From positions 122,180 to 186,179 of the forward strand of contig CAZHDZ010000002.1 of the NCBI GenBank assembly GCA_964531275.1: DNA of 64,000 nucleotides. Reading direction: 5' to 3'. Both the position numbers and the translations under genes were made by a program. The notes beneath the pieces were generated by a model. The model worked only from the letters and a program-made list of their open reading frames with translations, made no database searches and had not been told where the DNA came from. The DNA is from an uncultured Gammaproteobacteria bacterium (GTDB lineage: Bacteria > Patescibacteriota > Microgenomatia > Levybacterales > GWA1-39-11). Positions 33,787-52,377 of this stretch are shown here, one piece after another. Within the stretch, counting starts at the first letter, position 1. Every line of letters begins with the position of its first letter.

Positions 33787-34016
33787 GTATTACCTATAAC
33801 TTTTACAGTTATTACATCGCCCTTACTTTTCCTGCGTAACATTGAGTAGTAACAAGTTAAATTTACTTAATTTTTATTTAACTTTATTTTAATTTTTATT
33901 TAACTTAGTTTTATACTATACTGTAAGTAGATAGTATCCACGCTGCTTTTGTTAAAAGAAATTATCTGAATTTTGAGCCCCAGTATAGAATACTGGCGAA
34001 ATCATAAATATACATA

Positions 34017-35504
34017 ATGAGTTCAATCGAATTAAAGAAAAATTCAAATCGTTTAGAGAAAAATAAAAGTTTTGTGTATAAGGGAGTGAGCTACATGCAT
34101 TATGCTGATATAGCTTTCCATCAAAGTGCATACTATCTCTTTACAAGAAAGCAAAAGATTCTCATTGTTGCTCTTCTACTAACCATAGCGGGTGCATTTC
34201 TTTTCAACTGGCATGCAACATTAATTTTCGCAGTTATATTTGTCACAGCGATATACTTCATTGATTTTTTCTTTAACTTTTTTCTCATCTTTAGAAGTTT
34301 TACAAATAAGCAAGAGCTTTCATTTACGAAAGACGAAGTACTTGCCTATAACAAAAGTTGGCCTACTTACACAATCCTTTGCCCTTTATACAAAGAATGG
34401 GCAGTAATTCCACAATTTGTTAAGGCAATGAAAAATCTTGATTATCCCAAAGAAAAGTTACAAATACTTTTCTTGCTCGAAGAGGATGATGTGCAATCGC
34501 AACAAGTTGTTAAGGAGTTTAATCTTCCTTCATTTTTCGAAACCGTGATTGTTCCACACTCTCTCCCAAAAACAAAACCAAAGGCAATGAATTTTGCATT
34601 GTCTAAAATTAAAGGAGAGTATTGTGTAATTTACGACGCAGAAGATGTGCCAGATACTTTGCAATTAAAGAAAGCGATTCTAGGATTTGATTTATCTGGT
34701 GAAAAAGTAGCATGCATACAAGCAAAACTAAATTTTTATAATCCGAGTCAAAATCTTTTAACAAAGGCTTTCACTGCTGAATATTCATTATGGTTTGAGC
34801 TTATTCTTCCGGGGCTACAGACGCTTAATGCTCCTATACCTCTTGGTGGTACGTCTAATCATTTTCGAACTGAAGGTATTAAGATGCTTGGTGGGTGGGA
34901 TCCATTTAACGTTACAGAAGACGCTGATCTGGGCATTAGACTTTTTAAAAAGGGTTACAAAACTGCAATTCTAGATTCAGTTACTCTTGAAGAGGCAAAT
35001 AGTGATTTTCTTAACTGGTATAACCAAAGAACTCGGTGGATAAAAGGATATATACAGACATACGTTGTTCACATGCGTCATCCCACTACATTTGATAAAA
35101 AGTTTTTGAATTCACATGTATTCTTGTTTCAGTTGATTATAGGGTCCAAAGTTTTCTCTCTTTTAGTAAACCCGTTCATGTGGATGTTAACTCTTGCTTA
35201 TTTTGTGTTCCAATTTCAGTTTGGTGCTTTTGTTGAATCGCTCTACCCGCCAATAGTTTTGTACTTTGCAGTAGCTACCTTAATATTTGGTAATTTTTTG
35301 CAGATTGTATATTACATGATCGGTTGCTACAGAAAAAAAGAATTTGCACTTTGCAAATATGCATTAATAATCCCACTCTATTGGATTGGAATGAGCGTTG
35401 CAGCATGGAAAGCATTATATGAAACGTTCTATAAGCCTTATTACTGGTCAAAAACAAAACATGGTTTACATCTACAAAAGCCTGTAGTTTCTACAAATAG
35501 TTAA
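34017..35504 (+). CDS. family 2 glycosyltransferase, processive beta-glycan synthase-like (BcsA/NodC-like), paralog 1 (single-domain)
   Basis: D...DAED (VIYDAEDVP), TED (VTEDADLGIR) and QxxRW (QRTRWIKGY) motifs, with 2 N-terminal and about 4 C-terminal TM helices. Confidence 0.8.
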   Translation: MSSIELKKNSNRLEKNKSFVYKGVSYMHYADIAFHQSAYYLFTRKQKILIVALLLTIAGAFLFNWHATLIFAVIFVTAIYFIDFFFNFFLIFRSFTNKQELSFTKDEVLAYNKSWPTYTILCPLYKEWAVIPQFVKAMKNLDYPKEKLQILFLLEEDDVQSQQVVKEFNLPSFFETVIVPHSLPKTKPKAMNFALSKIKGEYCVIYDAEDVPDTLQLKKAILGFDLSGEKVACIQAKLNFYNPSQNLLTKAFTAEYSLWFELILPGLQTLNAPIPLGGTSNHFRTEGIKMLGGWDPFNVTEDADLGIRLFKKGYKTAILDSVTLEEANSDFLNWYNQRTRWIKGYIQTYVVHMRHPTTFDKKFLNSHVFLFQLIIGSKVFSLLVNPFMWMLTLAYFVFQFQFGAFVESLYPPIVLYFAVATLIFGNFLQIVYYMIGCYRKKEFALCKYALIIPLYWIGMSVAAWKALYETFYKPYYWSKTKHGLHLQKPVVSTNS

Positions 35505-36932
35505 ATGGGATTCATAAAGAAAAACTTACTTGATATTTTATGTTGGCTGCTTTTAGTGGCCGGGGTTTTTGCTGTTTATGTAGTAGCTATTGAAAAAAAC
35601 TTTACATCATCCGTAGAAAGAGGAAGATACGCCCTAACAAGAGCAATTGTTGAAGATAAGTCTTTTAAAATAGATAGCTATAAAGAGTTTTCGTACCCTG
35701 ACGTTAGTTTTAAAAATGGCCATTACTATAGTCGATTTCCTGCAGGCATGTCTTTCCTGATGGCACCTGCACACATGATAGCTTTAAGGATATCTCCACA
35801 AAATCCACAAATTGTTGGTTTTGAATTCGTATCACTACTCTCTGCACTTTCAGTAGGATTTTTATATATCTTAGGACGAATTAATAAATTCAGCATTTCA
35901 ACTTCATTGCTTGGAGGCTACGTATTTGCGTTTGCGACTATTCTATTTTCATTTTCTGGGGGTTACTGGGCACATATTCCTTCAATTTTTGTTGTCTCAT
36001 CTGTTCTTGTTATCTTTTCTCTTTTCCTAAAAAGTCCAAAGTACCGGCATATATTTCTAATTGCGTTACTCTATTCCATTGGATTCAGCATAGATTTTCC
36101 GAATGCACTTTTCCTTTTCCCGATTATTTTGTTTATTCTTATTGCAGGTTACAAGAAGGGGAAACTTACTTTTCTGAAATATTTTGGTCTCATTATTACT
36201 CCTATTATTCTTATTATTTCGCTAATTCTCTTGTATAACACCTTAAGCTTCGGTAAACCCCTAGCAATTGGACAGTCTGCTTCAGTATCAGTTGGGACGA
36301 GATTTAAAACAAGCTTTATTCCATTAAAAGACTGGACTTCAGAAGGAGTATTTGATGACAGAAGGCTTTTTCCAGGCCTATACACTCAATTAATTAGTTC
36401 TCAACGAGGTCTTCTCATGTTTTCCCCTATCGTTTTCTTGGCTTGCATTGGCTTTATAAGTCTTTTTAAGAAAGACAAAATTTTCAGCACGGTAACTGCG
36501 AGCATTTTCTTGATTAATGTTATTTTTTATTCTGTATGGCAAGACTATTGGGGTGGCTGGAGTTATGGACCAAGATATCTGCTGGCAGTTCTTCCCATAT
36601 TTCTTTTGCCGACTCTTTTCTTTATTAAAGAAAAGCTGAAGAATATTTTGTTTCTAGTTTTATTTATTTTAGCCTCATTCTGGGGAATTTTAATTAACAC
36701 ATTGGGTGCTCTTACGGGCATACTTTTACCGTGCCCCTGCGAAGGATATTATGGACTTAAATATTCTCCACTCCAAGCTTTTAATCACCTTTATACCGCA
36801 AGCGATATTAACTCATTTTTTTACGATTCCTTCCTCCGTTCATTATTATCCCCACAATATATGTTCTTGCTTCTATTTTCTGTAATCATGTTGTTTTTTA
36901 TAGTTCTTGTATTAGTACATGAGAAAAAATAG
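35505..36932 (+). CDS. GT-C family (ArnT/PMT-like) membrane glycosyltransferase, paralog of 53999..55540
   Basis: About 12 TM helices. The first loop ERGRYALTRAIVED resembles the DEGRYAEISREM loop of ArnT/PMT_2. Confidence 0.5.
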   Translation: MGFIKKNLLDILCWLLLVAGVFAVYVVAIEKNFTSSVERGRYALTRAIVEDKSFKIDSYKEFSYPDVSFKNGHYYSRFPAGMSFLMAPAHMIALRISPQNPQIVGFEFVSLLSALSVGFLYILGRINKFSISTSLLGGYVFAFATILFSFSGGYWAHIPSIFVVSSVLVIFSLFLKSPKYRHIFLIALLYSIGFSIDFPNALFLFPIILFILIAGYKKGKLTFLKYFGLIITPIILIISLILLYNTLSFGKPLAIGQSASVSVGTRFKTSFIPLKDWTSEGVFDDRRLFPGLYTQLISSQRGLLMFSPIVFLACIGFISLFKKDKIFSTVTASIFLINVIFYSVWQDYWGGWSYGPRYLLAVLPIFLLPTLFFIKEKLKNILFLVLFILASFWGILINTLGALTGILLPCPCEGYYGLKYSPLQAFNHLYTASDINSFFYDSFLRSLLSPQYMFLLLFSVIMLFFIVLVLVHEKK

Positions 36933-39525
36933 TACACATTTTTATTTTTGGATAACTGCTGCAGTAGCATCAATATTGAGCATTGCCAGTTACATCTATT
37001 ATCTAAATCAAGGCGTTACAGTCGCTTACAACGATGCCAGAGCGCATTTAGATATGGCAAGACTGGTCGTTGATAATCTAAAACCCGGTATCGCACAAAT
37101 GGGAAGCGTTTGGTTACCACTTAATCACGTGCTTATGCTTCCGCTTATATGGAATTACACGCTGTGGCAATCTGGATTTGCAGGAAGTTTGGTGTCAATG
37201 ATCACGTTTATTGGAAGCGCACTTTTCATCTTTTTACTTGTTAATGAACTGACGAAAAAAGCACACGTAGCCTTTCTAGGTAGTCTTGTATTCATTTTAA
37301 ATCCAAACGTGTTATATATGCAGACAACACCCATGACAGAACTTACGCTTTTATTCTTCTTTACAGGCACAAGCTACTTTCTCTGTAAGTGGGTAAAAGA
37401 AAATTTCAACATTATCTATTTAATATTATCTGCTTTCATGGTATTTGGTGCCACCCTCACGCGGTATGATGGATGGTTCCTATTTATCTGCCTCATACCC
37501 TTAATAGCCGTTATGTCATTTGTTTCTGTTATTTCAAAAAGAACTGATATAAAACGAGCAGTTCTTGTTCAGTTAGCAAGAATTATTGAAGGAAGAATTG
37601 TAATTTTTTCGACAATTGGAGGCTATGGAATCCTATTATGGCTATTATGGAACCAAATTATTTACGGACAAGCCCTCTATTTCATGATCGGTCCATATTC
37701 AGCATATGCGCAGCAAACAAAGATTAAAGAGGCTGGGTCCTTATTAACCTACCACAACCTTCCACTCTCCATACAGTCTTATTGGTGGGCGATGGTTGAC
37801 AATACAGGCTCGCTATTGTTATTGCTAGGCGTAATTGGCTTCTTATACTTCCTTATTAAGCAAAAAATTAACCCAATTGCTTTAGCGCTATACACACTAC
37901 TTACCCCGTTGGTTTTCCATATACTTTCACTGTATGCAGGGAATTCAATATTAGTTGTGCCCGAGCTTGGTTCATCAGCTACACAAGAAGCTCATACCTC
38001 ATGGTTTAATGTAAGATATGGGTTAATGATGGTTCCCGCTGTTGCTATTTTTAGCGCATATCTTGCAAGTAAAGCCCGACTTATTGCAGTAATATTATTA
38101 ATTTCGATAATTGCTCAAGCAGGTTTGTTGTATATTAGAAATGATGTTATTACACTAACTGATGGTGTGATCGGGACTAGTTCACTGGACGTTGGAGATG
38201 CAAGCACCTGGATGAGGAGTGAGGTTGCTTCTGGAAATGGCCACATTTTAACCTCTATTGCCTACAATAATGCTTTAGCTTTTAGCACTGGTATTCCCCT
38301 AAAGAGGTTTATTCATGAAGGCACGGGAAATTACTGGTCAGACTCATTAACAGCACCCTCCAAGCATGCTACGTGGATAGTTATGGCAAATGGAGATGTA
38401 GGAGATGCAATATATACATCTTTAGTAACAAAGAAGAATCCTGATTTTAAGAATAACTTTACTCTGGTTATGAAAGGGAAGCATACGAATATTTATCAAA
38501 GAAACGAAACCTTAACGGATAAAAAAAATGCTGTTTTGGGTGTAAATATGGAAAATCTCAACATTCATGGCATGAATTCATATGATCTTGTATACAGAAC
38601 ACATAGGGAAATAGATGAAACCCTCAGTACTGCCGCTTCTCATAATATAAATACAATCCGTTTTTGGGGTTTTGGCGAAGGCTTTAAAGACTCATTCCAA
38701 CCAAATCTCGGAGAATTTAACTATAAAATGTTTGATAATTTGGCATACGCTGTTCATGAAGCTGAAAAAAAGAACCTAAAAGTAATTATCACATTCTCGA
38801 ATTATTGGAAGGATTATGGTGGAATAATTCAGTACTTAAAGTGGCACAACCTACCTAGTGCAACTACTACTCAAAAAGATGAATTTTTTCAAAATGAAAA
38901 AATAATTGTAAGCTTTGAAAAGTATATAAATGAGCTCTTGAGCTATAAGAGTTTGTACACAGGCAAACCCTTAAAGGAAGAGAAAGCTATTCTCGGATGG
39001 GAGCTAATGAATGAAGCGAGAAGTTCCACGGTTAAACGACAGGATATAATATTAAAATGGATGGATCGAACTTCTACTTATGTTAAGAGGCTAGATCCTA
39101 CTCGTCCAATTTTCGCAGGAGTAGAAGGTTTTACAGCTCAGTATCAACCTGATGGACATGGGCCGTTATTAGAAGATGTAGCGAAGCTTAAAAATATCGA
39201 TATCTTAACTGGTCACTACTACATAAGGGAAAATGATAAGTCTTCAATCGCTGAAGTGTTTTCGTATTGGCAAAAGATACAAAAAAGCAGCGGAAAACCT
39301 CTTCTTGTTGAAGAGGCTGGATTTGTAAAGAATAAAAAAGGGAATGAAAATAAAAACAGAATAGACCTATATAAAGACATATATAAAGAGGCTGATTCAA
39401 GAGGGCTTAACGGAGTGCTTCTTTGGAATTGGGCTCTAGCGATAGACAGTAGTTTTGGAATTTCCCCAAAAGATAAAAATGATAGTGCTATTTTAAATTT
39501 AATAAAAACGCAGGGAGCTAAGTAG
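36919..39525 (+). CDS. fusion protein: N-terminal GT-C-like multi-TM domain (paralog of 45212.. and 52378..) plus C-terminal GH5-type glycoside hydrolase domain
   Basis: The N-terminal roughly 500 aa are multi-TM with YNDARAHLDMARLVVDNLKPGIAQMGSVWLPLNHVLMLP. The C-terminal roughly 330 aa carry NTIRFWGF, a TIM-barrel strand LKVIITFSNYW, and a GWELMNEAR (NEP-like) catalytic acid/base motif of GH5. Confidence 0.55.
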   Translation: MRKNSTHFYFWITAAVASILSIASYIYYLNQGVTVAYNDARAHLDMARLVVDNLKPGIAQMGSVWLPLNHVLMLPLIWNYTLWQSGFAGSLVSMITFIGSALFIFLLVNELTKKAHVAFLGSLVFILNPNVLYMQTTPMTELTLLFFFTGTSYFLCKWVKENFNIIYLILSAFMVFGATLTRYDGWFLFICLIPLIAVMSFVSVISKRTDIKRAVLVQLARIIEGRIVIFSTIGGYGILLWLLWNQIIYGQALYFMIGPYSAYAQQTKIKEAGSLLTYHNLPLSIQSYWWAMVDNTGSLLLLLGVIGFLYFLIKQKINPIALALYTLLTPLVFHILSLYAGNSILVVPELGSSATQEAHTSWFNVRYGLMMVPAVAIFSAYLASKARLIAVILLISIIAQAGLLYIRNDVITLTDGVIGTSSLDVGDASTWMRSEVASGNGHILTSIAYNNALAFSTGIPLKRFIHEGTGNYWSDSLTAPSKHATWIVMANGDVGDAIYTSLVTKKNPDFKNNFTLVMKGKHTNIYQRNETLTDKKNAVLGVNMENLNIHGMNSYDLVYRTHREIDETLSTAASHNINTIRFWGFGEGFKDSFQPNLGEFNYKMFDNLAYAVHEAEKKNLKVIITFSNYWKDYGGIIQYLKWHNLPSATTTQKDEFFQNEKIIVSFEKYINELLSYKSLYTGKPLKEEKAILGWELMNEARSSTVKRQDIILKWMDRTSTYVKRLDPTRPIFAGVEGFTAQYQPDGHGPLLEDVAKLKNIDILTGHYYIRENDKSSIAEVFSYWQKIQKSSGKPLLVEEAGFVKNKKGNENKNRIDLYKDIYKEADSRGLNGVLLWNWALAIDSSFGISPKDKNDSAILNLIKTQGAK

Positions 39526-39542
39526 ATGAGTGTTTAAAAAGA

Positions 39543-40091
39543 TTAGGCTTCGGGTGTTGCGATTTGAGTTGCCGTGATCACAAATTCTAGACCACTTTTG
39601 AGATTGTTGAAATGAGGTTCGTAAGGAAAATACAGTTGTCTTTCTTCTTCAACCCCAAGCTCCCAGCGACTGACATCCCAGGCTAGTCTATCTCCATTTT
39701 CCGAATATTGCCCTAATCCCTGATAGGTAGGTACACCCCCTACTGAAAGGCTAATTCTTGCAAGATCAATCTCTGGATCTATTTCATCAAACGCAAAAGA
39801 CATTGATACAGGTCCCTCGGAAAGGACTCGTGTTTTGTCCGGTTGCATTTCGTATACTACTTTTGTCGGACCCAGAGGCATATCTCCCTCGATAGTTTTG
39901 CTTGATGTTGCGGCTAGACTAAAGTTCCAACGACCTTTGCCAAGACCTTCTACGTCTAGGTCTACTGTTCCTAATTCGATATCTTCAAAGTCTCTTTCTC
40001 CATCTATATTTGGCTCAAAGTCTTCAGGTATTCTAAATTTCTCACCAAGTTTTACGTTAAGTTGTGGTCTAGGATTCTCTTCTGAGGTCAT
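39543..40091 (-). CDS. hypothetical protein (acidic, no TM helices)
   Basis: 182-aa ORF with no recognisable motif and slightly elevated GC. Confidence 0.35.
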   Translation of the reverse strand: MTSEENPRPQLNVKLGEKFRIPEDFEPNIDGERDFEDIELGTVDLDVEGLGKGRWNFSLAATSSKTIEGDMPLGPTKVVYEMQPDKTRVLSEGPVSMSFAFDEIDPEIDLARISLSVGGVPTYQGLGQYSENGDRLAWDVSRWELGVEEERQLYFPYEPHFNNLKSGLEFVITATQIATPEA

Positions 40092-40132
40092 TTGTAAAGT
40101 ATAAGGGTGGGGCTAAATGGAGTCAATAATTG

Positions 40133-40951
40133 TTATAGTGACCAGATCTTGAAGTTCTTAAATTCTACGTCCATAAAATCTGTTCTTATTCCTGCGTAAT
40201 TATCTTCACTTATAGGTCTTGAGCCATATCTAGATCCCTCGTCTGTTGCTGTAAGATACGTGGTCCATGAGCCTCTATTCTGCAAATCTCCTTCAAGCGT
40301 TATGTTAACCTTTCCATTGTCATTTCTGACAACGGTCTTAATACCTATCCACGAGTTGAGGGGAATGAGATTTGGATTTGAATTTCTATTATATGTTCCA
40401 TTGAGCACTTTCTTGTAGGCCAATGTATAGTATGACCCATTTAATTTCTTTTTAATTACCATAGCACCATCAACTCTTAATCCTGCGTAGTACAGAGTTT
40501 GGCCATCCATTGCGTATCTGCTCATGAGTAAAATTCCATTCCCTTCACTTCTATTACTACTAGAAAGCGCGTTGTAACGATTTATTTTGAAATAATTTGT
40601 TTGAGCAAAATTGCCCCATCGTGGTCTTGTGATAAGCCTTAGAAGATTTTGTGGTTGTCTTCCTCCGTTAGTATCAGTACTGCTACTTTTTGCGTACATT
40701 TGGAAAATAGGACTGGAAGAAGGAAGATCTCCCTGGAGTGATTTACCAATTCCGTCTGTGACTGTGATTGTTCCACCAGAATTAACCCACAAATTTGGGT
40801 TATTGCTCGTATCCATGCTGCCGGCGCCGAGAATTGTCATATTCTGGCCTGGGGTAAATGAATAAAGAATAGCTGCGTAAGCTTGAGTGGCTCCAACTAA
40901 ACTTAAGAGAAAAAGGGCAAGCAGTATAACTTTCATTTGATGCTGCTTCAT
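40133..40951 (-). CDS. secreted protein with a LamG/concanavalin-like jelly-roll domain
   Basis: Signal peptide MKVILLALFLLSLVGATQAYA. The beta-rich body contains a YAGLRVDG block similar to the C-terminal domain of the adjacent deacetylase. Confidence 0.4.
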   Translation of the reverse strand: MKQHQMKVILLALFLLSLVGATQAYAAILYSFTPGQNMTILGAGSMDTSNNPNLWVNSGGTITVTDGIGKSLQGDLPSSSPIFQMYAKSSSTDTNGGRQPQNLLRLITRPRWGNFAQTNYFKINRYNALSSSNRSEGNGILLMSRYAMDGQTLYYAGLRVDGAMVIKKKLNGSYYTLAYKKVLNGTYNRNSNPNLIPLNSWIGIKTVVRNDNGKVNITLEGDLQNRGSWTTYLTATDEGSRYGSRPISEDNYAGIRTDFMDVEFKNFKIWSL

Positions 40952-42540
40952 CGGTCCTCATAATATACCTTTACGTCACTAATTTCAACTTTTGCCTTAT
41001 TCTGAGTTCCTGAATACACACCAAATCCAATTCCACCATTTGGAATTGTGCCAACGGTTCTAGAAGATATGAGAGTCCTATTGTTGTAGAGGCATTCGAT
41101 TAAATTGCCTGTTACTCTCATTCCTATATATGCTCCGTCAGAAAGCGTTAAATAGTAATTACTTCCTGTCTTTGTAAGTACTATTCTTTTGCCATCTACT
41201 TTTTGGTCAAGAGTTACTCCGTCAGGGTTATAGGTGCAAACAACCATATTATTTCCATCAATTGCTCTTGAGATTACACTAAAGTTCTTTCCACTAACAA
41301 GCTTTGCGTTTGCACTTACAGTGTAGTCAGTCCAAAGATATGACCCGTCTAAAAATGTTGTTAGACTTGCACTTTTGGTGCCAACATTCAACGTCATAAC
41401 TCCTTGAGAAATTGTGTAGTCGAGATTTCCATTGCTACTTACCCAATTCTCGTTTTCTTCTACAAAAAAGTTGCCCGTAAAAGGAAGACTTTTTGATTGG
41501 CTCGCAGCCATGGTATGTATAAATTCCGTAATTTTTACATTCTCTGAGGACTTTATTCTTCTAACAAGTCTTTTCTCTGCATTGATTTTAAAATTATTTC
41601 TAAAGTAACCGGTTCTTTTATCTGTTTTAAATTGGATCATATATTTGTTGTATACACTTGCAGTAAGCGCCAAGATCTCCCCAGCAGTACTTTCCGTGCC
41701 ATAATCTCCAAATGGAAATGCATAACTTGTTACTGTATTGCCCAGAAGATCTTCAATATCTCTTTTCGAATCTGTTAAGTCCTGAATAATTCTTTCTCTA
41801 TATTCCTTGTCATTTTCTAGTCTGTTCTCACGATCAAGCCATTTCTTGTTAGTCATGAAATGTCCCCTCTTCCCTTCTTTATTTATTTTGATAAGATTGT
41901 GATCATTTCTTCCATGAGACTGTATATCCCATCTACCTGTCGCAGCCATTTCCAGCACTTCTTCTCGAGTTATGTAATATGGGGATTTTTCATTTGTAGT
42001 CGAATGAGCAGTGATAACATACATAATTGCCTTAAAGCCCAATGCCTGAAGTAAAGGATCGGAGTTATAGTAGCTCGTCTTAATACCGTCATCGAAAGTT
42101 AAAAGAAATGATCTATCGGGAAGTTCAATCTTTCCTTCCAAAAAATCTTCAAATTCTCTAAGCGTTACGGTCCTGTACCCTTCCTTCTTAAGAGCAAGCA
42201 TTTGTTGAGTAAAATTCTCGAGAGAGATTTCTTCAGTAGGATCTTCAATCTTACCGCTCTCTCTTGTAACTCCGTGATATACAAGAACCGGAACTGCATC
42301 CGCATTTCTGTTTTCAATTTTATTAACAACAAGATTAGATACAACTTTTTGATAGTTATTTAGATCGTCATTCATTTGCTTCTGTAACTGACTCTCACGA
42401 CTTTGCACTTTGGCAGCTTTTTCAAATATGAAATCAATTGCCGAAGTGTGAAAATAGTACTTTCCGATTAAATTGGAAAGTACAAAAAAAAGTAGAAGAA
42501 CTCCAACTATCTCTACAAGAAATTTTAACCTCTTATCCAT
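40948..42540 (-). CDS. polysaccharide deacetylase (CE4, NodB domain) with N-terminal TM anchor and C-terminal LamG-like domain
   Basis: LLTFDDGIKTSYY (TFDDG motif 1), HGRNDH (His motif), and an N-terminal TM helix. The C-terminal roughly 170 aa form a jelly-roll-like domain. Confidence 0.7.
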   Translation of the reverse strand: MDKRLKFLVEIVGVLLLFFVLSNLIGKYYFHTSAIDFIFEKAAKVQSRESQLQKQMNDDLNNYQKVVSNLVVNKIENRNADAVPVLVYHGVTRESGKIEDPTEEISLENFTQQMLALKKEGYRTVTLREFEDFLEGKIELPDRSFLLTFDDGIKTSYYNSDPLLQALGFKAIMYVITAHSTTNEKSPYYITREEVLEMAATGRWDIQSHGRNDHNLIKINKEGKRGHFMTNKKWLDRENRLENDKEYRERIIQDLTDSKRDIEDLLGNTVTSYAFPFGDYGTESTAGEILALTASVYNKYMIQFKTDKRTGYFRNNFKINAEKRLVRRIKSSENVKITEFIHTMAASQSKSLPFTGNFFVEENENWVSSNGNLDYTISQGVMTLNVGTKSASLTTFLDGSYLWTDYTVSANAKLVSGKNFSVISRAIDGNNMVVCTYNPDGVTLDQKVDGKRIVLTKTGSNYYLTLSDGAYIGMRVTGNLIECLYNNRTLISSRTVGTIPNGGIGFGVYSGTQNKAKVEISDVKVYYEDR

Positions 42541-43859
42541 ATTGATTTTTTAATAGTAAAAAGGGAATAGAATATCAACCAAGAAAGAATAAAGGTAGAC
42601 ATAAGGCTCATGATTGGTCTAAAAATCCACTTATAATCGCTGTTTTCTTCGAATTTATACGCAAGCCCGTACAAAAAGCCTACAAATGCAATTCCTACTA
42701 TATACAAAAAACCTGTCTCAAAGTTACCCCGGAGAGGCAGGTAGATTATGTGTCTTGCTACAATAAAAGGTCCAAGCAATACAAAAAGGATGTGCGTATA
42801 ATAGACGGCTGCAGGAATAAAAGGCTTCTTCCAATAAAAGCTACCGGTAAAGAAAATATTGCGAATAAAACTTTTCTTCCATCTAACTTGCTGCTTAATA
42901 AATTTAGGAAAAGTATCGGGAATATTTGTCCAAACTTTAGCAGATTTTGAGTACACCACTTTCCAATCCTTTGCGGGATAATTAACTGAAGTTACAAATG
43001 GGGAATCTTTGTATTGCTTCTTTAGTTTTTTCTCAAGAAATTTACTTCCCAGTACGAAGGCTGTTAATGTTCTATCTGTGGCAAATCTAAATTCTTGACC
43101 CAAAAATGTGTCACCTTCCCAGGCAGGTATGAAATTGTAAATTGCTTCTCGCCTAAAAACAGCTAGGGGTCCTGAGACACAAGTTACCGCGCCAAAGACA
43201 CTTTCAAAAGCTTTTCTAATAGAGAACTGGCCCTCATACCAAGTGTCCTGAATTTTAGTAAGCAGGTTCTTCTCTGAGTTAAGAGCTCTGCAATGTCCAC
43301 TGACTGCACCAATTGATGAATCGTGTGCAAATATAAGCTCGATCTTTTCAAGAGCATCTGGTGCAAGCACAGAATCGCTATCAGAAAAAGCAAGAATGCT
43401 ACCTTTGGATTCAAAGATTGCTTTTGCTATTGCTTTTTTCTTCCCAAGATTTTGAGTTAATGTAATAACTTTAATTTTGTAATTCTTAGCCAGCCTTGCA
43501 AGTAGAAGTGGTGTAGCATCGTCACTTTGATCATCAACAATTATTATTTCTTTATTTGTGTAGGTTTGGTGAATGATAGAAAGAACACATCTCTCGATAA
43601 GTGCTTCCTCATTTCGCACTGCAACAATACACGTAATAAGATTTCGTCCACCTTTAGTAAAGCGCGAATTCTTAGCAACAATATATGGATCCTTATAGAA
43701 ATTAAAAACAGTAAAAAATACAAAAAGAATTCCAAGAGTAACGGTCACTCCATAACCCAAGAAAAGCACACTCTCATTTCCTTGCGAGAATAATAGCTTC
43801 CCAGCAAGTATAGAAACAATCGTTAGAAGTATGACGTGAGAGGCTATTTTTTTTCTCAT
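42525..43859 (-). CDS. family 2 glycosyltransferase (membrane-embedded, PgaC/Bcs-like)
   Basis: IIVDDQSDD, AFSDSDSV (DxD), QVRWKKS (QxxRW), and N- and C-terminal TM helices. Confidence 0.7.
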   Translation of the reverse strand: MRKKIASHVILLTIVSILAGKLLFSQGNESVLFLGYGVTVTLGILFVFFTVFNFYKDPYIVAKNSRFTKGGRNLITCIVAVRNEEALIERCVLSIIHQTYTNKEIIIVDDQSDDATPLLLARLAKNYKIKVITLTQNLGKKKAIAKAIFESKGSILAFSDSDSVLAPDALEKIELIFAHDSSIGAVSGHCRALNSEKNLLTKIQDTWYEGQFSIRKAFESVFGAVTCVSGPLAVFRREAIYNFIPAWEGDTFLGQEFRFATDRTLTAFVLGSKFLEKKLKKQYKDSPFVTSVNYPAKDWKVVYSKSAKVWTNIPDTFPKFIKQQVRWKKSFIRNIFFTGSFYWKKPFIPAAVYYTHILFVLLGPFIVARHIIYLPLRGNFETGFLYIVGIAFVGFLYGLAYKFEENSDYKWIFRPIMSLMSTFILSWLIFYSLFTIKKSIWIRG

Positions 43860-45142
43860 TATATTGTTCTGCCAATGCCTTTGTAATAAATATCTTGATC
43901 CTTAAAAGCGTCTCTACTTAGGAAATTTCTTCCATCGACAAGAACCTTAATGCCATGCTTTTTTAGAAGCTCTGGAGTAAGCACTTTGAATTCCTTATGT
44001 GTTGTAGCAAGAAGGATTGCATCAGCTCCTTCCAGAGCCTCCTCGATAGAATTAACATTAGACTTGGCAGGAATATATGGGTCATAAATTCTTAAAATAG
44101 CTCCTTTATTCTTTAGATCCTCAAGCATTTCATAGGCAGGACTTTCACGATCATCATCAATATTGCCCTTGTATGAAAGCCCCAAGAAAGCAATTTTTGA
44201 TCCTTTTACAGATTTTTCAACTGAATTAAGTCCATTGAGCATTAACTCAACTGTTTTTTGAGGCATTTGATTATTTATTCTTCGGGCAAGAGAAAGGAAA
44301 TCGTGATGAAATCCATTCTTCTTTGCATATTCAATAAGATAATAAGGATCCACCGGAATGCAGTGCCCACCCACTCCACATCCTGGGTAATGTGCCATAA
44401 ACGCAAAAGGCTTCGTTGCAGCACCATCGATAACATTAACAACATCTATCCCTAGCTTTGAAAAGGATAATGCCAATTCATTTACAAAAGCAATATTAAT
44501 ATCACGAAAAGAATTCTCAACAACCTTACAGGCTTCTGCTTCTTTCAAAGAACCCATCTCTTTCACTGATGCTGTGAGAATTGTTCTATAAAAAGTTGCA
44601 GCACGTTCCAAGCTTTCATCATCAAAGCCACCAACAACTCTATTTATATTTTCTACATTCCATTTTGGATCTCCGGGATTAATTCTCTCTGGGCAGTGAC
44701 TTAAGAAGAAATCAATTCCACATTTTAAGCCTGAGCTTTCCTCAAGAATTGGCGCCATGACATCTTCACTTACTCCTGGGTTAACTGTCGACTCCAGAAT
44801 AATTAGTTGACCTTTCTCTAAGTGCTTACCGATTGATTCACATGCAGAAACCACTGGTCCGTAATCTGGCATATGATTGTCATCAATTGGTGTAGGCACA
44901 CAAACAATAACTATTTCTGCTCCTTTTATTTTTGAAAAATCATTTGTTACGGTTAGATTTGATGTAGGAAGATATTTTTCAACAGCTTCATCTTTGAAAG
45001 TAGGAATTTTATTATTGAGCTTTTCGACTGTATTAGGATTTCTGACAATGCCAGTGACACTATAACCTTTCCTATCTGCCAAAAGAGCCAGTGGCAAACC
45101 CACATAGCCTAATCCTATAATTGCTATTTTACTACCACTCAT
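43859..45142 (-). CDS. nucleotide-sugar 6-dehydrogenase (UDP-ManNAc/UDP-GlcNAc dehydrogenase WecC/TviB-like)
   Basis: N-terminal IAIIGLGYVGLPLA Rossmann, a catalytic GGHCIPVDPYYL block, and a C-terminal UDPG_MGDP_dh_C-like end. Confidence 0.8.
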   Translation of the reverse strand: MSGSKIAIIGLGYVGLPLALLADRKGYSVTGIVRNPNTVEKLNNKIPTFKDEAVEKYLPTSNLTVTNDFSKIKGAEIVIVCVPTPIDDNHMPDYGPVVSACESIGKHLEKGQLIILESTVNPGVSEDVMAPILEESSGLKCGIDFFLSHCPERINPGDPKWNVENINRVVGGFDDESLERAATFYRTILTASVKEMGSLKEAEACKVVENSFRDINIAFVNELALSFSKLGIDVVNVIDGAATKPFAFMAHYPGCGVGGHCIPVDPYYLIEYAKKNGFHHDFLSLARRINNQMPQKTVELMLNGLNSVEKSVKGSKIAFLGLSYKGNIDDDRESPAYEMLEDLKNKGAILRIYDPYIPAKSNVNSIEEALEGADAILLATTHKEFKVLTPELLKKHGIKVLVDGRNFLSRDAFKDQDIYYKGIGRTI

Positions 45143-45211: not shown

Positions 45212-46747
45212 TTAACTTTTTCTTTTATATACGAAGATTTCACCATTTCTATATACAACATCAAAATACTTGTTGAGCTGAACATTTGAACTCAACTGTC
45301 TCCATATTGCATCGGTCTTATCATGTCTCACAATTAACCACCTAACATGATCCTGAGGTTTTTCCAATGCATTCTCCCAGTGGGGATGATTACCAACATA
45401 GATAATATTTTCAAAAGGTATATTAAGGTCAATTGGGTCTGCACTTCTCGCAAAATCGTCAAACATTACATAACCATAATCGTAATTATCCCTAACAAAG
45501 TTTGTTGCAGGAGAGGGTCTTCTAGAAGAAAGTCCTACAATTCCATCTTGAAGAGACACCGGTGTCCCACTGACCACAAATAGATATGCCTGAACAGCAA
45601 TTACGGCAATAATTACTGGTTTTAGGTACTTATGTAAGGAAGCTGTTAAAAGAGCTAAAAATACTGCTACGGCAGGGACCATAATAATTCCATACCGAAT
45701 GTTAAAAAGAGTCCACTGGTAGTCTTGTGGAACAAGCTCTGGCACTAGTAAAATTGAAATACCCAAGTAAAGTGTTATCACATAGAAAATATATGGAGTA
45801 AGTAAGGCTAAGCTGGCCGCAAAAGTTGCTCTGCTTTTAGAAAAAATTGTTTTCCCTATTCCTAAAAGTACTCCAAGCAATGCGACAATTGAAACTACAA
45901 CACCTGCATTTTGAGCTGATGCTAACGAATAATAGGTAAGAGAATTTGTAATATTTTTATATGATGGAAGTTCTCCGCGAGCCAACCAATCCATTTGTTG
46001 CGATTTTGCAGAATAAGGGCTATTTAAATAATAAGCAGGATCATTAAATATAAGATAACACCACAATGACCAGAGACCTATTCCAAAGAATGCAAGAACT
46101 GCATATATTACAATACTGCCTTCTATCTTCTTGTACTTATACCCTTTCAGTAAGCCAATGATAACTACTGCTATGACTTCAAAAATTACTAGAAACCACG
46201 CGTCATAGCGCATTAAGGTTCCTGCAAAAGCTGCAAATGAAGCAAGAATAAGTGGCCCAATCGTTCCTTTCTTCGCCCAAAGGACAAGATAGTACGAGGA
46301 TAAAATCAAAGAACAAATTAAGGGTAATTCTCCGAGGGGAGTTGTCTGCATATATAGTATGTTGGGATTTAATGCAAAAACTACAACTCCTACGATTTGT
46401 GCAAACCTTGAAGGGGTAAAAAGTCGAATTAGCTTGTATACATATAGTACTGAGACAACATAACTCAATGCTGCAACAATTGTTCCTGCAAGGCCACTTC
46501 TCCACAGAAAATCATTCCATACAAATGGGAGCATAAGCATATGAGGTAGTGGCAACCATGCTCCTCCTAATTGTCCAAAGCCAGGAGTAAGTCCGCTAAC
46601 AACTCTTTTTGCTATATTTATATGTGATTCAGCATCTCCATAAGCAAGTATTAAGTTGTTGGTGAATGCATAGAAAATACTACTCATGCTTGCTACACAT
46701 GCAAGTAAAATAATAGAAAGTAATATATTTTTGTCTACTCTTGTCAT
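45212..46747 (-). CDS. GT-C-like multi-TM membrane protein (paralog of the N-domain of 36919.. and of 52378..)
   Basis: AYGDAESHINIAKRVVSGLTPGFGQLGGAWLPLPHMLMLPFVWNDFLWRSGLAG aligns with the other two paralogs. About 12 TM helices. Confidence 0.5.
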   Translation of the reverse strand: MTRVDKNILLSIILLACVASMSSIFYAFTNNLILAYGDAESHINIAKRVVSGLTPGFGQLGGAWLPLPHMLMLPFVWNDFLWRSGLAGTIVAALSYVVSVLYVYKLIRLFTPSRFAQIVGVVVFALNPNILYMQTTPLGELPLICSLILSSYYLVLWAKKGTIGPLILASFAAFAGTLMRYDAWFLVIFEVIAVVIIGLLKGYKYKKIEGSIVIYAVLAFFGIGLWSLWCYLIFNDPAYYLNSPYSAKSQQMDWLARGELPSYKNITNSLTYYSLASAQNAGVVVSIVALLGVLLGIGKTIFSKSRATFAASLALLTPYIFYVITLYLGISILLVPELVPQDYQWTLFNIRYGIIMVPAVAVFLALLTASLHKYLKPVIIAVIAVQAYLFVVSGTPVSLQDGIVGLSSRRPSPATNFVRDNYDYGYVMFDDFARSADPIDLNIPFENIIYVGNHPHWENALEKPQDHVRWLIVRHDKTDAIWRQLSSNVQLNKYFDVVYRNGEIFVYKRKS

Positions 46748-48864
46748 ATGGCACCTTTAAAAATATTGTTCTTCAAATGTAAACCGTGCTTTGTCTTTGA
46801 CCAATGGTGTGGTGCAGTAATTAGCTTATATACAGCCATCCATGCAGCGGCACTCATGAGTAACCAATATATGGGCACAAAAAGAGCGTATTTAATAAGC
46901 GCATAGTGCCCATGCTTTGCGCATCCGATCATGTAGTAATACATGTAAAGGAAATTCCCACAGATGAGAGAAGCAATGCCAAGATAAAGAACAGGTACTG
47001 GGAATAATGATTCAATTATTGGACCAAATTGAGACCTAAATAAGAAATAGAGAATTGTTAGCATCCACATTGCGGGGTTAACAAACATTGAAAATATTTT
47101 GCCCCCAATAACCATTTGAAAAAACAAAAGATCAGGTTTTCTAAATGTACTTGAGAAATCTCCTGGTTTTCTCATGTGCAAGAAATACGTTTGAATGTAC
47201 CCTTTTATCCATCTCGTTCTTTGCCAAAACCAGTTATTTAAATCACTATTTGCTTCCTCTAGAGTTACTGAAGAAACTATGGCTGTTTTGAATCCTAATT
47301 TTGCGATTCTCATCCCTAGATCTGCGTCTTCTGTTACATTAAATGCATCCCAACCCTTCAACATCTTAAGATCTGAAGTTCTAAAGTGGTTTGAGGTTCC
47401 ACCTAATGGGATTGGAGCTTTTATAGATTGTAGGCCCGTAAGAACCAAATCAAACCATAGTGAATACTCGGCTGTAAACGCTTTTGTCAGAATATTTTGA
47501 TGGGGATTGTAAAAATTTAACTTAGCCTGTATGCACGCTGTTTTACGCCCTGCCCTCTCAAATGCAAGAACTGCTTTTTTAAGTTGCATAGGTTCTGGTG
47601 CATCTTCGGCATCAAAAATAACAACAAACTCTCCAGTCGCCCGAAGCAATCCATAATTACAAGCCTTTGGTTTTGTCTTTGGGAATGAATGAGGAACAAT
47701 AATTGCTTCAAAATATGAAGGTAGGTGAAGTTTTTCTATGTAAGAAAGGCTTTCAGTATCATCTTCCTCCAAGAGCAGCTGAACCTGCAACTTATTTTTT
47801 GGATAGTCTAACTTTGATATCGCTTGGGTAAATTGAGGGATTACCTGCCATTCTTTATAAAGCGGGCAAAGAATTGTGTACCTTGGGAGGCGTTCATCAT
47901 TGATTTCTGAAAGCGCTACATCTTCTATAACTATCTCTGCTGGATTTGCAAAGCTTCTTATGATTAAGAATAGGTTAAAAAGTAAATCCAGAAAATATAA
48001 TGTCGTTATAATCCCAACAAAGGAGATAAGAGCTAACTTCCAGTCTGAAGCAAAGGAATACACGCCAGCAGTTAGCATTAAGAGCATTAGTGTAATTTGT
48101 CTTTGATTGAATCTATAGAATGCACTTTCATCCTGAGGAAGCTCTGAGTAATGAACAAATTCTTTCCCGTCGTAATGAAATCCATTGCCTTTTTCTTTTG
48201 CAATTCGTGGGTGAAAAGGAATTACTACGTGTCCAAGAACTTTAAGACGCAACTTTTCCTTAACTAATGTCATTATCCCATGAAGGGTTCTATTGGCAGG
48301 TTTTTTGAAGAATCTTCTTGAAGTGTTGGCTTTGAAAGCAGTAACGATATAGCCGGCGTCTTTTGAACTTTGTATAAATTCAAAGTCAAAAATAGATGAA
48401 TTTAAATTTAAACGCTCATAAATTTCTCTCTTAAAAACAACTAAATCCAGCTGAAGATCTACACCTACTAATTTTCTCAAAAACCCCTTAGCTACTCTTT
48501 TATTGCTTGCGTAGACAATGTCGTTTGATTCCAACTCTTGTATCATTTGACTAACGATATCAATCGGGTATTTGCTTCCAAATTCCATTACGCAAATATT
48601 CTTATACGATGAATTTTTCAAACCTCTTTGAATGTTGTAACCACGACCCGGCTTTCCGTCTCTTTTTATTAACTTAATGGGATAATGGCTTAAGAAAACC
48701 CTCGTGTCCCACTCAGAACTTTCTGAAAATGTGTCGGCAACAAAAATTATTTCGTACGAGTCACGCTGACCATCAAACAAAGCGTCAATTTTAGTTACTA
48801 TTGACTCAAAACTTTTTCTGACGCCGGATACATGAACAATAAAGGAGGTTTTTGGAAGATTCAT
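46744..48864 (-). CDS. bifunctional glycosyltransferase: N-terminal DPM1/ArnC-like GT2 domain, TM region, C-terminal processive BcsA/NodC-like GT2 domain (paralog 2)
   Basis: The N-terminus has IIFVADTF...RDGKPGRG. The C-terminal half has the YTILCPLYKEWQVIPQF block shared with 34017.., plus FDAEDAP, TEDADLGMR and QRTRWIKGY. Confidence 0.75.
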   Translation of the reverse strand: MNLPKTSFIVHVSGVRKSFESIVTKIDALFDGQRDSYEIIFVADTFSESSEWDTRVFLSHYPIKLIKRDGKPGRGYNIQRGLKNSSYKNICVMEFGSKYPIDIVSQMIQELESNDIVYASNKRVAKGFLRKLVGVDLQLDLVVFKREIYERLNLNSSIFDFEFIQSSKDAGYIVTAFKANTSRRFFKKPANRTLHGIMTLVKEKLRLKVLGHVVIPFHPRIAKEKGNGFHYDGKEFVHYSELPQDESAFYRFNQRQITLMLLMLTAGVYSFASDWKLALISFVGIITTLYFLDLLFNLFLIIRSFANPAEIVIEDVALSEINDERLPRYTILCPLYKEWQVIPQFTQAISKLDYPKNKLQVQLLLEEDDTESLSYIEKLHLPSYFEAIIVPHSFPKTKPKACNYGLLRATGEFVVIFDAEDAPEPMQLKKAVLAFERAGRKTACIQAKLNFYNPHQNILTKAFTAEYSLWFDLVLTGLQSIKAPIPLGGTSNHFRTSDLKMLKGWDAFNVTEDADLGMRIAKLGFKTAIVSSVTLEEANSDLNNWFWQRTRWIKGYIQTYFLHMRKPGDFSSTFRKPDLLFFQMVIGGKIFSMFVNPAMWMLTILYFLFRSQFGPIIESLFPVPVLYLGIASLICGNFLYMYYYMIGCAKHGHYALIKYALFVPIYWLLMSAAAWMAVYKLITAPHHWSKTKHGLHLKNNIFKGAI

Positions 48865-49218: not shown

Positions 49219-49752
49219 CTAAGCCTGAGGTTTTGCCACAACAACAAATCTTTTAGAATCTAAAAAGCCTGTACACGTATAAATTGTTATCCTACTGTCG
49301 TTAGTGTTGTCGATTATGTACGTCTGAGATGGATTAACAGTTGCTGTATACTCAATAACGAATTTTTTCTTATAGCCGTTTTCCATAATTATGTAGACTG
49401 TTTGACCAGGTTTTACTTTTGGAAGATCTGCCAAAAGATAATTCCAGTTGTGACCATACATCACACTGTTCCCTTTTTGTCCTGGTAGAGGTGATGAAGA
49501 CAAGTATGAGACCCCTTGGTTGCTTGTTTCCCACATATTCCCTTTTGTAATAGCAGGAATAATAGGCAAATTAACTTTTATAGACGGAATCTCTATTCTT
49601 TGAGGAGCTTCAAAACTAAGAACATTGACGGAAGTAGGAGCTTTTTCAAAGGACAATAAGTATGGAGAATGACGAAGAAAGAAAAGATAACAACTAAAGA
49701 TAAGAAAACCTAAGCCTAATAATAGTATGAGATTGGGAATTAAGTTTCTCAT
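49219..49752 (-). CDS. sortase (class E-like transpeptidase)
   Basis: N-terminal TM anchor, His box VMYGHNW, catalytic ITIYTCTG (TLxTC) and a downstream Arg (KRFVVV). Confidence 0.7.
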   Translation of the reverse strand: MRNLIPNLILLLGLGFLIFSCYLFFLRHSPYLLSFEKAPTSVNVLSFEAPQRIEIPSIKVNLPIIPAITKGNMWETSNQGVSYLSSSPLPGQKGNSVMYGHNWNYLLADLPKVKPGQTVYIIMENGYKKKFVIEYTATVNPSQTYIIDNTNDSRITIYTCTGFLDSKRFVVVAKPQA

Positions 49753-52376: not shown

Positions 52377-52377
52377 A

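Follow-up and report, generated by a model that had tools for sequence, protein, structure and literature searches.

We analyzed a window of 64,000 nucleotides (positions 122,180–186,179 of contig CAZHDZ010000002.1, assembly GCA_964531275.1) from an uncultured bacterium that GTDB places in the Patescibacteriota (Microgenomatia, Levybacterales), and find that one of its genes, P0001, encodes a single polypeptide in which a polytopic membrane domain with the glycosyltransferase C (GT-C) fold is joined to a mannanase-like domain of glycoside hydrolase family 5 (GH5). P0001 is the last of three abutting genes on the plus strand, the first of which encodes a BcsA-like processive synthase of glycosyltransferase family 2 (GT2), and genes for such synthases lie upstream of most fused homologues with sufficient upstream sequence. 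We lean, with somewhat better than even confidence, toward the reading that P0001 is an outside-face subunit that finishes, by modifying and cutting, the product of a synthase-dependent surface β-glycan pathway. Components of these general kinds were already known; what appears to be new, judging from the full texts of PMC and bioRxiv, is the GT-C/GH5 fusion and the partnership of synthase and GT-C. Feature coordinates are collected in table 1, and other genes of the window are referred to by their first coordinate.

The C-Terminal Domain Is a Mannanase-Like GH5 Barrel

A phmmer search of PDB sequences with aa 531–868 of P0001 returned 18 matches, 17 of which are mannan-active enzymes, including every match with an E value less than 1e-9. 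The best are 3pz9 (6.4e-34) and 6tn6 (3.1e-33) from Thermotoga petrophila, 8gf3 (3.6e-31; "BlMan5_7"), and 1rh9 from tomato (4.9e-25), and the mannanases 9m20 from soybean and 1qno from Trichoderma reesei are also among the matches. E values for these mannanases extend from 6.4e-34 to 5.6e-18 at approximately 23–27% identity; their subfamily is presumably subfamily 7, as the title of 8gf3 indicates. An AlphaFold2 model of full-length P0001, built from an alignment of 53 full-length homologues, has a mean predicted local distance difference test score (pLDDT) of 90.3, and within it aa 546–868 adopt a TIM-barrel fold with pLDDT mostly above 90. When this domain was compared with PDB using Foldseek, ranks 1–21 consisted entirely of mannanases and mannosidases of GH5, headed by 3pz9 (E value 3e-20, target TM-score 0.79), and target TM-scores to the mannanases named above reach 0.80.

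P0001 shares with these enzymes the barrel, the NE/Glu pair, and the conserved Arg, His, Tyr, and Trp residues. In the alignment, WELMNE of P0001 lies opposite WELANE of the mannanases, which places N698-E699 at the NE of 3pz9, 6tn6, and 8gf3, and LLVEEAG lies opposite VVLEEYG, with E799 matched to the latter of the two Glu residues in VLEEYG of 3pz9. Among the 53 homologues the acid/base E699 is present in all and the nucleophile E799 in 52, the remaining sequence having a gap; R581 is likewise kept in all 53, and H766, Y768, and W836 in 52 each. Because the catalytic residues are kept across homologues down to 32% identity, the GH5 half seems not to have decayed, and it is apparently an active enzyme.

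Matches to domain models are mixed. The local PF00150 model does not match P0001 even at an E value of 10, and the local NCBIfam library yields nothing useful for P0001 or for its halves; the same PF00150 model matches 48 of the 53 homologues. A precomputed annotation lists PF26410 for P0001, and our local copy of Pfam-A, from which this model seems to be missing, reports PF26410 for none of the 53 homologues, so that a blank local Pfam result is not evidence of absence. The first-pass annotation of the window, made from the letters alone, had assigned the C-terminal ~330 aa to GH5 with the NE acid/base and had named a missing nucleophile or a lack of relationship to GH5 or clan GH-A as grounds against this assignment. 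The phmmer and Foldseek matches together with the conserved N698 and E699 bear the assignment out, and both the nucleophile and a relationship to GH5, which PF00150 detects in most homologues, are in place.

The GH5 domain of P0001 differs from the solved mannanases in its setting: it sits behind a 530-aa membrane glycosyltransferase, whereas they carry a signal peptide or carbohydrate-binding modules (CBMs). Among the 150 best cluster representatives of its GH5 relatives, the close kin include secreted, tandem, and CBM-bearing proteins. Among the nearest relatives without the fusion are proteins (P0124, P0126, P0128, P0136, and P0139; 885–2137 aa) that have a tandem pair of GH5 domains. When short GH5 relatives were sought by a word-based search, the yield was limited to a fragment of 82 aa and one plant mannanase (29% identity). 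No match was obtained among proteins of 1520–4340 aa, a result that speaks, though weakly, against larger fusions with this GH5 domain. One GH5 gene was found in the host genome.

The N-Terminal Domain Belongs to a GT-C Family

A separate model of aa 1–530 (pLDDT 88.6; predicted TM-score [pTM] 0.88) was compared with known structures by two methods. All 28 Foldseek matches with an E value of 0.001 or less are GT-C enzymes, among them DPY19 (7zli, 5.9e-7), STT3, ArnT, PglB, AglB, ALG12, Pmt4, and AftA/B. In an exhaustive structural comparison (VIA), the top 20 rows all have the GT-C fold (Z 12.9–24.0; three are a noncatalytic subunit of the glycosylphosphatidylinositol [GPI] transamidase), the rows that follow have Z of at most 7.2, and the next rows for membrane proteins, which are unrelated, have Z of at most 6.5. 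The closest structures are AglB (3waj; Z 24.0, root mean square deviation [rmsd] 6.1, 429 residues aligned), ArnT (5f15; Z 23.7, rmsd 4.7, 434 aligned), ALG12 (9s6t; Z 23.2, rmsd 5.4, 416 aligned), and Pmt1/2 (6p2r; Z 22.9, rmsd 4.0, 363 aligned). With this fold in the N-terminal half and both catalytic Glu residues in the C-terminal half, the earlier proposal that one polypeptide combines a GT-C-like membrane domain with a GH5 hydrolase is upheld.

Helix positions in the AlphaFold2 model, hydropathy, and inside loops rich in Lys and Arg agree on 11 transmembrane (TM) helices with the N-terminus inside and the C-terminus outside. This topology predicts that the dome that ends the domain, and therefore also the GH5 domain, is located outside the membrane, where the first-pass annotation had suggested checking for it. 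The same annotation had placed the N-terminal ~500 aa in a paralogous family of 12 TM helices; the paralogy is confirmed, as aa 1–530 are 35% identical to 45212 and 40% identical to 52378, and all three share a Y-N/G-D-A-x-x-H loop after TM1, whereas the helix count is 11. Genes 35505 and 53999 belong to a different family (NF047440; 17–18% identity).

Several polar residues are kept throughout the family. D39, at the start of the first helix of the first outside loop (EL1), and H43 are present in 52 and 53 of the 53 fused homologues, respectively, and are invariant in a set of 54 mostly stand-alone members (set A3); E141 is kept in all 53 and is invariant or nearly so in A3. GT-C enzymes carry an acidic catalytic residue in EL1, such as Glu71 of DPY19 (excerpt of PMC10154233). 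From its position, rather than from a superposition, we infer that D39 is the equivalent of this acid. R182-Y183-D184, kept in all fused homologues, may have a role in binding the donor phosphate or a metal. Because D39, H43, E141, and R182-Y183-D184 are retained at these frequencies down to 32% identity, the GT-C part, judged by conservation, is not a mere anchor.

The dome has a modest similarity to the globular domain at the C-terminus of AglB, PglB, and STT3: for aa 423–530 the best matches are 3vu0 (Z 7.2, rmsd 3.3, 97 aligned), 3aag (Z 6.1, rmsd 3.5, 100 aligned), and 2zag (Z 5.8, rmsd 3.9, 101 aligned), and the whole-chain alignments to AglB and ArnT extend to residue 530.

By sequence the family stands apart. 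A profile of the GT-C family has no match to PDB sequences at E values up to 10; PMT_2 is matched by 30 of the 53 fused and 8 of the 54 mostly stand-alone members, mostly weakly, and not by P0001; and no Pfam or NCBIfam profile for the named CAZy GT-C families (GT39 protein mannosyltransferases [PMTs], GT83 ArnT, GT66 oligosaccharyltransferases) matches P0001. In terms of such profiles, the membrane part of P0001 belongs to a GT-C family without assignment to a named one.

Synthase Genes Are Linked to the GT-C Family

Gene 34017 encodes a protein with matches to BcsA (7lby, 7.8e-17), to Pfam PF13632 (8.3e-24), and, far below the model cut-off, to TIGR03030 CelA (2.9e-27). To determine how regularly such a synthase accompanies the fusion, we examined the 21 informative fused loci, defined as those with at least 800 bp of upstream sequence. 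In 18 of them, a BcsA-like GT2 gene of the same orientation is located no more than 7 kb upstream, and the first-pass suggestion of a link to polysaccharide synthases thus holds beyond the window. The next gene upstream is BcsA-like in 13 loci, LA_3751-like in 6 (as in the window), of the 51375 type in 1, and unrecognized in 1. Nine of these 13 neighboring synthases have an additional N-terminal GT2 domain that is like a polyprenyl-phosphate-sugar synthase (PolP-synthase); that of locus L002 matches dolichol-phosphate-mannose synthase (DPMS) 5mlz (7.6e-19) and ArnC (1.8e-14).

The association extends to the whole GT-C family, for which we identified 82 GT-C frames in 72 of 76 genome loci: 49 of 74 cases have a BcsA-like domain either in the frame itself or at a distance of at most 7 kb upstream, and an LA_3751-like gene is the upstream neighbor in 45 of 77 informative cases. 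In six Chloroflexota loci, synthase and GT-C form a single frame of 1142–1544 aa that is free of N and of frameshifts. Five are BcsA-like::GT-C fusions, three of these from Thermogemmatispora genomes (L047, L050, and L051; the others are L052 and L063), and the sixth (L062) is a PolP-synthase::BcsA-like::GT-C fusion. Two of the three Thermogemmatispora genomes come from cultured strains. A split form is found in Dictyobacter alpinus (L041), where a stand-alone GH5 gene adjoins BcsA-like and GT-C genes, and likewise in L114. Some metagenome or metagenome-assembled copies (L096, L107, L115, L086, and L031) have a synthase or GT-C gene broken into two frames, which may be due to frameshifts or assembly errors. 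Counting helices by Kyte–Doolittle hydropathy in the synthases and the Chloroflexota fusions proved too crude to judge whether their topologies are compatible.

Structure prediction also supports binding of the two proteins. A predicted complex of the 495-aa synthase 34017 with GT-C aa 1–420 has an ipSAE of 0.75, compared with 0.01 for the best of three controls; 116 of 157 solved complexes and 2 of 215 mismatched pairs attain the mark used for this score, rates that are rough here as the alignments were our own. At least 95% of contacts are shared between runs, and both partners have pLDDT of at least 81. Synthase residues 95, 396, and 423–450, the last of which are in the C-terminal helices, are predicted to face residues 165–169 and 221–247 in TM5 and TM7 of the GT-C. 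We know of no solved synthase/GT-C complex, and because of this it seems unlikely that the prediction passed by reproducing a known structure.

The Fusion Is Rare in the Phylum and Probably Old

Among the 120 best database matches of P0001, 67 have GH5 Pfam domains; the 53 that do not are almost all ~505–552 aa, the size of a stand-alone GT-C. Of 401 evenly sampled genomes from the phylum, 22 have the GT-C family (E value of 1e-30 or less) and 5 have a GH5 match (1e-10 or less), and 4 of these 5, the host included, encode the fusion in frames of 869–890 aa; the fifth GH5 genome has a 960-aa Cellulase + CBM protein with only 246 residues ahead of GH5. We then pooled the window, 5 genome loci, and 31 metagenome loci; their 38 GH5 domains group into 31 clusters at 95% identity. 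A fusion to GT-C is present in 28 of the 31 nonredundant loci, the GH5 domain is unfused in 2, and the remaining locus is truncated by the end of its contig. The first-pass annotation had called the fusion of a hydrolase to a synthase-side membrane protein unusual; this is correct with respect to its frequency in the phylum and to the full texts of PMC and bioRxiv (subscription journals lie outside this scope), in which our searches met with neither a GT-C/GH5 fusion nor a BcsA-like/GT-C partnership, but with more than half of the best matches carrying GH5 the fusion is not a one-off.

Trees of the GT-C domain contain a well-supported split that separates 52 of the 53 fused sequences and 3 stand-alone rows from 50 stand-alone rows and P0067. 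Four changes of state are needed on these trees, so a single origin of the fusion is not strictly demonstrated; P0067 is on a long branch and perhaps misplaced, and P0025, from a 2.2-kb contig, is perhaps truncated. For the GH5 domain, the 150 best cluster representatives include 22 that are fused, and a single supported set of 30 rows holds them all. The picture suggested by these trees, the rows of which are the top matches of one search and hence a nonrandom sample, is of one old fusion with few later losses.

A Possible Finishing Subunit and Its Rivals

If P0001 is a finishing subunit, the BcsA-like synthase 34017 would, as its family and motifs suggest, polymerize a β-linked glycan and export it through the membrane, with the GT-C core of P0001 packed, as predicted, against its C-terminal membrane helices. 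At the outer leaflet the GT-C would move a sugar from a polyprenyl-phosphate-sugar to the emerging chain or its acceptor, using the invariant EL1 residues Asp39 and His43 and the R182-Y183-D184 site, and the GH5 domain, tethered ~15 residues past the dome, would cut or transglycosylate the same polymer to release or size the chain, a role proposed for BcsZ and CcsZ with cellulose. Use of a polyprenyl-phosphate-linked donor is suggested by circumstantial evidence, namely the GtrB/DPMS-like GT2 domains in neighboring genes. The nearest GH5 relatives suggest a backbone of the β-1,4-mannan or glucomannan type. Circumstantially, a ManC-like gene elsewhere in the genome, far from the locus (G000:C1:204123-205190; L117 1495..2580; TIGR01479 positions 3–349, 9.6e-66, below cut-off), would fit with a supply of GDP-mannose. 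That gene is located between a GT4 gene and a gene for a polyprenyl glycosylphosphotransferase (TIGR03025, 8e-72, below cut-off), in what looks like a second glycan locus, Wzx/Wzy-style or similar.

A number of observations weigh against this reading. Synthase 34017 has no PolP-synthase domain and no GtrA-type flippase family is found among the Pfam matches of the open reading frames (ORFs) of the window; because of this, the donor supply of the operon is unaccounted for unless 59670 serves it. Three of the 21 informative fused loci (L088, L094, and L109) show no BcsA-like gene upstream, and the loci analyzed were picked by similarity searches, so that kin among them are not independent. The complex score expresses model confidence only, and the pTM of the full P0001 model, 0.65 compared with 0.88 for the N-terminal model, leaves the position of GH5 relative to the GT-C site unfixed. 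The GH5 clade includes tandem GH5-GH5 and secreted multidomain proteins of digestive type, and a GT-C is present on only 22 of the 150 best representatives. Finally, the closest relative, L001 (61% identity), has an operon of BcsA-like, LA_3751-like, and GT-C genes without a GH5 domain, and its genome, for which completeness is not given, has no GH5 match at an E value of 1e-10 or less. Because L001 runs the same operon without GH5, cutting by GH5 is not essential to the module. The obligatory coupling of synthesis and cleavage that the first-pass annotation had proposed is not supported in view of this operon and of the excess of sampled genomes with the GT-C family over those with the fusion; coupling of GT-C and GH5 is frequent and old, not obligatory.

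Other explanations have to be weighed against a finishing subunit. A system of the Pgf or Gtr type, in which the GT-C would add single sugars to sortase-anchored proteins or to a wall polymer, GH5 would edit that glycan, and the product of the synthase would be unrelated, is in our estimate unlikely. It would account for a sortase gene (49219..49752; PF04203, 3.5e-23) and a gene for a small protein without a Pfam match in the same island, and for the matches of double GT2 proteins to PgfS NF047588 (59670, 1.9e-20; L084, 7.5e-25) and to ArnC-type models; moreover, GT-C enzymes supplied by GtrB-like synthases transfer single sugars. In Streptococcus mutans, PgfS, PgfM1, and PgfM2 of the Pgf operon glycosylate Cnm and WapA (excerpt of PMC5856776). 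Yet synthase and GT-C are one polypeptide in the six Chloroflexota frames and are adjacent in most loci, and their predicted membrane interface passed its controls. We also know of no role for a mannanase-like endo-hydrolase in Pgf or Gtr systems.

Distinctly improbable, in our view, is that the GH5 domain serves foraging, that is, that it digests β-mannan-type glycans of the environment or of a host cell for an auxotrophic epibiont while the GT-C merely anchors it or acts independently. All solved GH5 relatives with E values less than 1e-9 degrade mannan, the secreted, tandem, and CBM-bearing proteins among the close relatives point the same way, as does the single GH5 gene in a genome of 1.67 Mb, and bacteria of the Candidate Phyla Radiation (CPR) are thought to live attached to hosts (excerpt of PMC11665869). 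A 530-aa anchor of 11 helices with invariant residues of the active-site type exceeds what simple anchoring needs, however, and a single TM helix is enough for the 51375 family; most informative loci link the fusion to synthase genes, and no genes for sugar uptake or mannose catabolism were noticed beside the fusion gene in the window. We consider it very improbable that the GT-C has lost transferase activity and is a scaffold, a partner in the manner of BcsB along which the nascent chain would pass from the synthase to the tethered GH5 domain. PIGU, a subunit with the GT-C fold, is a noncatalytic part of the GPI transamidase, and this subunit is among the fold matches of P0001 (9ub7_B, Z 16.4, rmsd 4.3, 280 aligned; 7w72_U, Z 15.7, rmsd 4.7, 301 aligned); in addition, nothing BcsB-like occurs among the Pfam matches of the island or window ORFs, and the operon lacks a PolP-synthase of its own. 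Against a scaffold, the invariant acidic and basic residues sit in the outside loops that hold the catalytic and phosphate-binding residues of GT-C enzymes, and the PolP-synthase-like domain carried by most of the adjacent synthases would make a product that needs a consumer.

The finishing-subunit reading can be extended to a single assembly line of PolP-synthase, BcsA-like synthase, GT-C, and GH5 that makes a branched surface polymer like β-mannan or glucomannan, an extension that we put forward tentatively and regard as rather doubtful. It starts from the chain of fusions, in which PolP-synthase is joined to BcsA-like synthase, BcsA-like synthase to GT-C, and GT-C to GH5. The synthase would extrude the backbone, the GT-C would decorate it during synthesis from the lipid-linked sugar made by the extra domain of the synthase, and the tethered GH5 would cut the polymer or graft it onto the wall by transglycosylation. 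If true, bacteria would possess a synthase-dependent pathway in which branching on the outside face is built in. Branching logic of this kind is familiar from hemicellulose synthesis in the plant Golgi, and to our knowledge it has so far been found in plants and not in bacteria.

Comparison with Known Systems

With respect to GT-C enzymes that use lipid-phosphate donors (ArnT 5f15, AglB 3waj, PglB 5ogl, PMT 6p2r and 9e61, ALG12 9s6t, and DPY19 7zli; Z 16.6–24.0), P0001 has in common a polytopic core with the N-terminus inside, a long EL1 with an invariant acid, a C-terminal outside dome, and a flexible late outside loop (aa 341–364, pLDDT ~60). PMTs also have 11 helices, and ArnT and PglB have 13. 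DPY19, described with other features of GT-C enzymes in the excerpt of PMC10154233, has 13 helices, compared with 11 in P0001. P0001 differs from all these enzymes in carrying a glycoside hydrolase.

The cellulose systems BcsA/BcsZ (GH8) and clostridial CcsA/CcsZ (GH5) are comparable in that a GT2 with TED and QxxRW motifs is accompanied by a dedicated extracytoplasmic hydrolase in the synthase operon, a place that the GH5 domain takes in the operon of 34017. CcsZ provides a monoderm precedent, being a GH5 enzyme that serves a Gram-positive cellulose synthase (excerpt of PMC7710045). Unlike in these systems, the hydrolase of P0001 is mannanase-like rather than cellulase-like and covalently joined to a GT-C, the synthase often has an additional PolP-synthase domain, and the Pfam lists contain no PilZ or BcsB-type partner; synthases 34017, 46744, and 59670 match GT2 families only.

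GtrA/GtrB/GtrC, ArnC/ArnT, streptococcal PgfS/PgfM1/PgfM2, and GacI-L likewise have a GtrB/ArnC/DPMS-like GT2 gene beside a GT-C gene. Here, in contrast, the GT2 forms one polypeptide with a processive synthase, the GT-C carries or precedes a hydrolase, and no GtrA-type flippase is seen in the window; the target of the GT-C is more likely the polymer of the synthase than O-antigen, teichoic acid, or protein. Synthesis and processing by a glycoside-hydrolase fold are coupled in one polypeptide in the cyclic β-1,2-glucan synthase Cgs and in GH17-GT2 proteins of the NdvB type. These use cytoplasmic GT2/GT84 domains and have neither a GT-C fold nor a GH5 domain.

The Surrounding Island and Its Unfused Modules

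The host genome, of 1.67 Mb in 76 contigs and ~95% complete, has Gottesman-, Roizman-, and Pacebacteria as the named relatives of its proteins in database matches, which points to a CPR/Patescibacteria bacterium of the Microgenomates type. A Pfam scan identified ~34–62 kb of the window as a glycan-biosynthesis island, and the left half of the window contains unrelated housekeeping and lipid genes. Besides the three genes of the operon, the island encodes a GNAT/FemAB-like protein, a PIG-L deacetylase, a polysaccharide deacetylase, a nucleotide-sugar dehydrogenase, the sortase, five further GT2 proteins, and two GT4 proteins. The first 14 nt of P0001 coincide with the end of the preceding gene, and a convergent gene follows P0001 on the 3' side. 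A scan of positions 33700–40200 for promoters and terminators found fewer sites than in shuffled sequence and carries no information. The middle gene of the operon, 35505, probably encodes a second GT-C; a lead in this direction is that modeled structural neighbors of its product in the ESM Atlas are RgtA/B/C/D-like and PMT-like clusters (TM-score 0.83–0.90).

Table 1. Features of the Fusion Gene P0001 and of Related Genes in the Window
Feature	Residues (aa)	Position	Strand	Description and basis
Fusion gene P0001	1–868	36919..39525	+	GT-C, linker, GH5; 868 aa, ATG start (ORF list and translation)
Membrane core	1–407	36919..38139	+	11 TM helices, GT-C fold, N-terminus inside; Foldseek, VIA, hydropathy
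D39..H43	39–43	37033..37047	+	EL1; candidate catalytic acid of GT-C; D39 in 52/53, H43 in 53/53
R182-Y183-D184	182–184	37462..37470	+	Short outside loop TM5–TM6; 53/53 fused set, invariant in A3
Dome	408–530	38140..38508	+	Extracytoplasmic α/β; also ends stand-alone paralogues
Linker	531–545	38509..38553	+	Flexible; pLDDT <50 for 532–543
GH5 domain	546–868	38554..39522	+	(β/α)8 barrel, mannanase-like; phmmer vs. PDB, Foldseek
N698-E699	698–699	39010..39015	+	GH5 acid/base pair after strand β4 (691–695 in model); 53/53 homologues
E799	799	39313..39315	+	GH5 nucleophile, end of strand β7 (795–800), E-x-G; 52/53 and one gap
Operon gene 1		34017..35504	+	BcsA-like processive GT2 synthase, 495 aa; TED at 300, QRTRW at 337
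Operon gene 2		35505..36932	+	LA_3751/3752-like polytopic protein; NF047440 1.3e-12 (below cut-off), PMT_2 0.0092
Third module		45212..48864	−	BcsA-like GT2 46744..48864 (TED 511, QRTRW 548), then GT-C 45212..46747
GH-A-like protein	TM segment 17–37	51375..52394	−	TM-anchored, clan-GH-A-like by ESM Atlas model; directly after GT-C 52378
Paralogous pair		52378..55540	−	LA_3751-like 53999..55540, then stand-alone GT-C 52378..54006
Double GT2		59670..62114	−	814 aa; PolP-synthase-like N-domain fused to BcsA-like synthase

On the minus strand, the run 53999, 52378, and 51375 repeats the logic of the fusion operon in unfused form, and the gene run that it ends is headed by 59670. The product of 59670 has two GT2 stretches in Pfam, with phmmer E values of 3e-48 for its PolP-synthase part and 5e-166 for its BcsA-like part, and it matches the NCBIfam models PRK10714 (ArnC type, 4.7e-22), PgfS, and CelA. 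The first-pass annotation had described 51375 as a second, TM-anchored GH5-like gene. The anchor and, by model, the GH-A-like fold are supported (TM-score 0.63–0.69 to Cellulase, GH2_C, and GH53 clusters), whereas membership of GH5 is not supported by sequence: BLASTP against the GH5 domain gave a best E value of 0.014 over 36 aa, no meaningful similarity. The 51375 family has no Pfam match; a GEFG-type motif is present, and an NE pair was not identified. On the basis of the model we list 51375 as the putative unfused counterpart of the GH5 domain and its family, with members in the window, L001, L013, L021, L032, and L061, as a candidate new glycoside-hydrolase-like family. In 33 of 75 informative frames, the gene that immediately follows the GT-C encodes a 51375-type protein, so that a separate hydrolase-like neighbor, in place of the fusion, is common for this GT-C family; in L021 a 58%-identical homologue of 51375 lies directly upstream of the fusion gene.

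An apparent fusion of GT-C to a 51375-family protein in L056 was rejected: the junction consists of 10 N (11538..11547), followed by a new start and a TM segment, and there are two genes. In a stop-to-stop translation such a run of N mimics a fusion and is a trap for automated counts of domain architectures.

Positions 40948..45142, also on the minus strand, contain a NodC/chitin-synthase-like GT2 gene (42525..43859; TIGR04242, 1.8e-36, below cut-off) and a polysaccharide deacetylase gene (40948..42540), and the nucleotide-sugar dehydrogenase gene (43859..45142) adjoins the former. Judging from these matches, this region may be a separate module for a polymer like chitin/chitosan or poly-N-acetylglucosamine, downstream of the synthase and GT-C pair 46744/45212.

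Implications

The fusion described here is a naturally membrane-tethered mannanase-like enzyme, and the GT-C family is available for curation of the CAZy type. The chain of fusions predicts that processive GT2 synthases are direct partners of this GT-C family, and because the same genes are split or otherwise fused in cultured Chloroflexota (D. alpinus and Thermogemmatispora), the prediction is testable in organisms that can be grown. The envelopes of the CPR/Patescibacteria are almost unexplored biochemically, and loci of the P0001 type would provide a well-defined machine, open to experiment, for a surface glycan of these bacteria.

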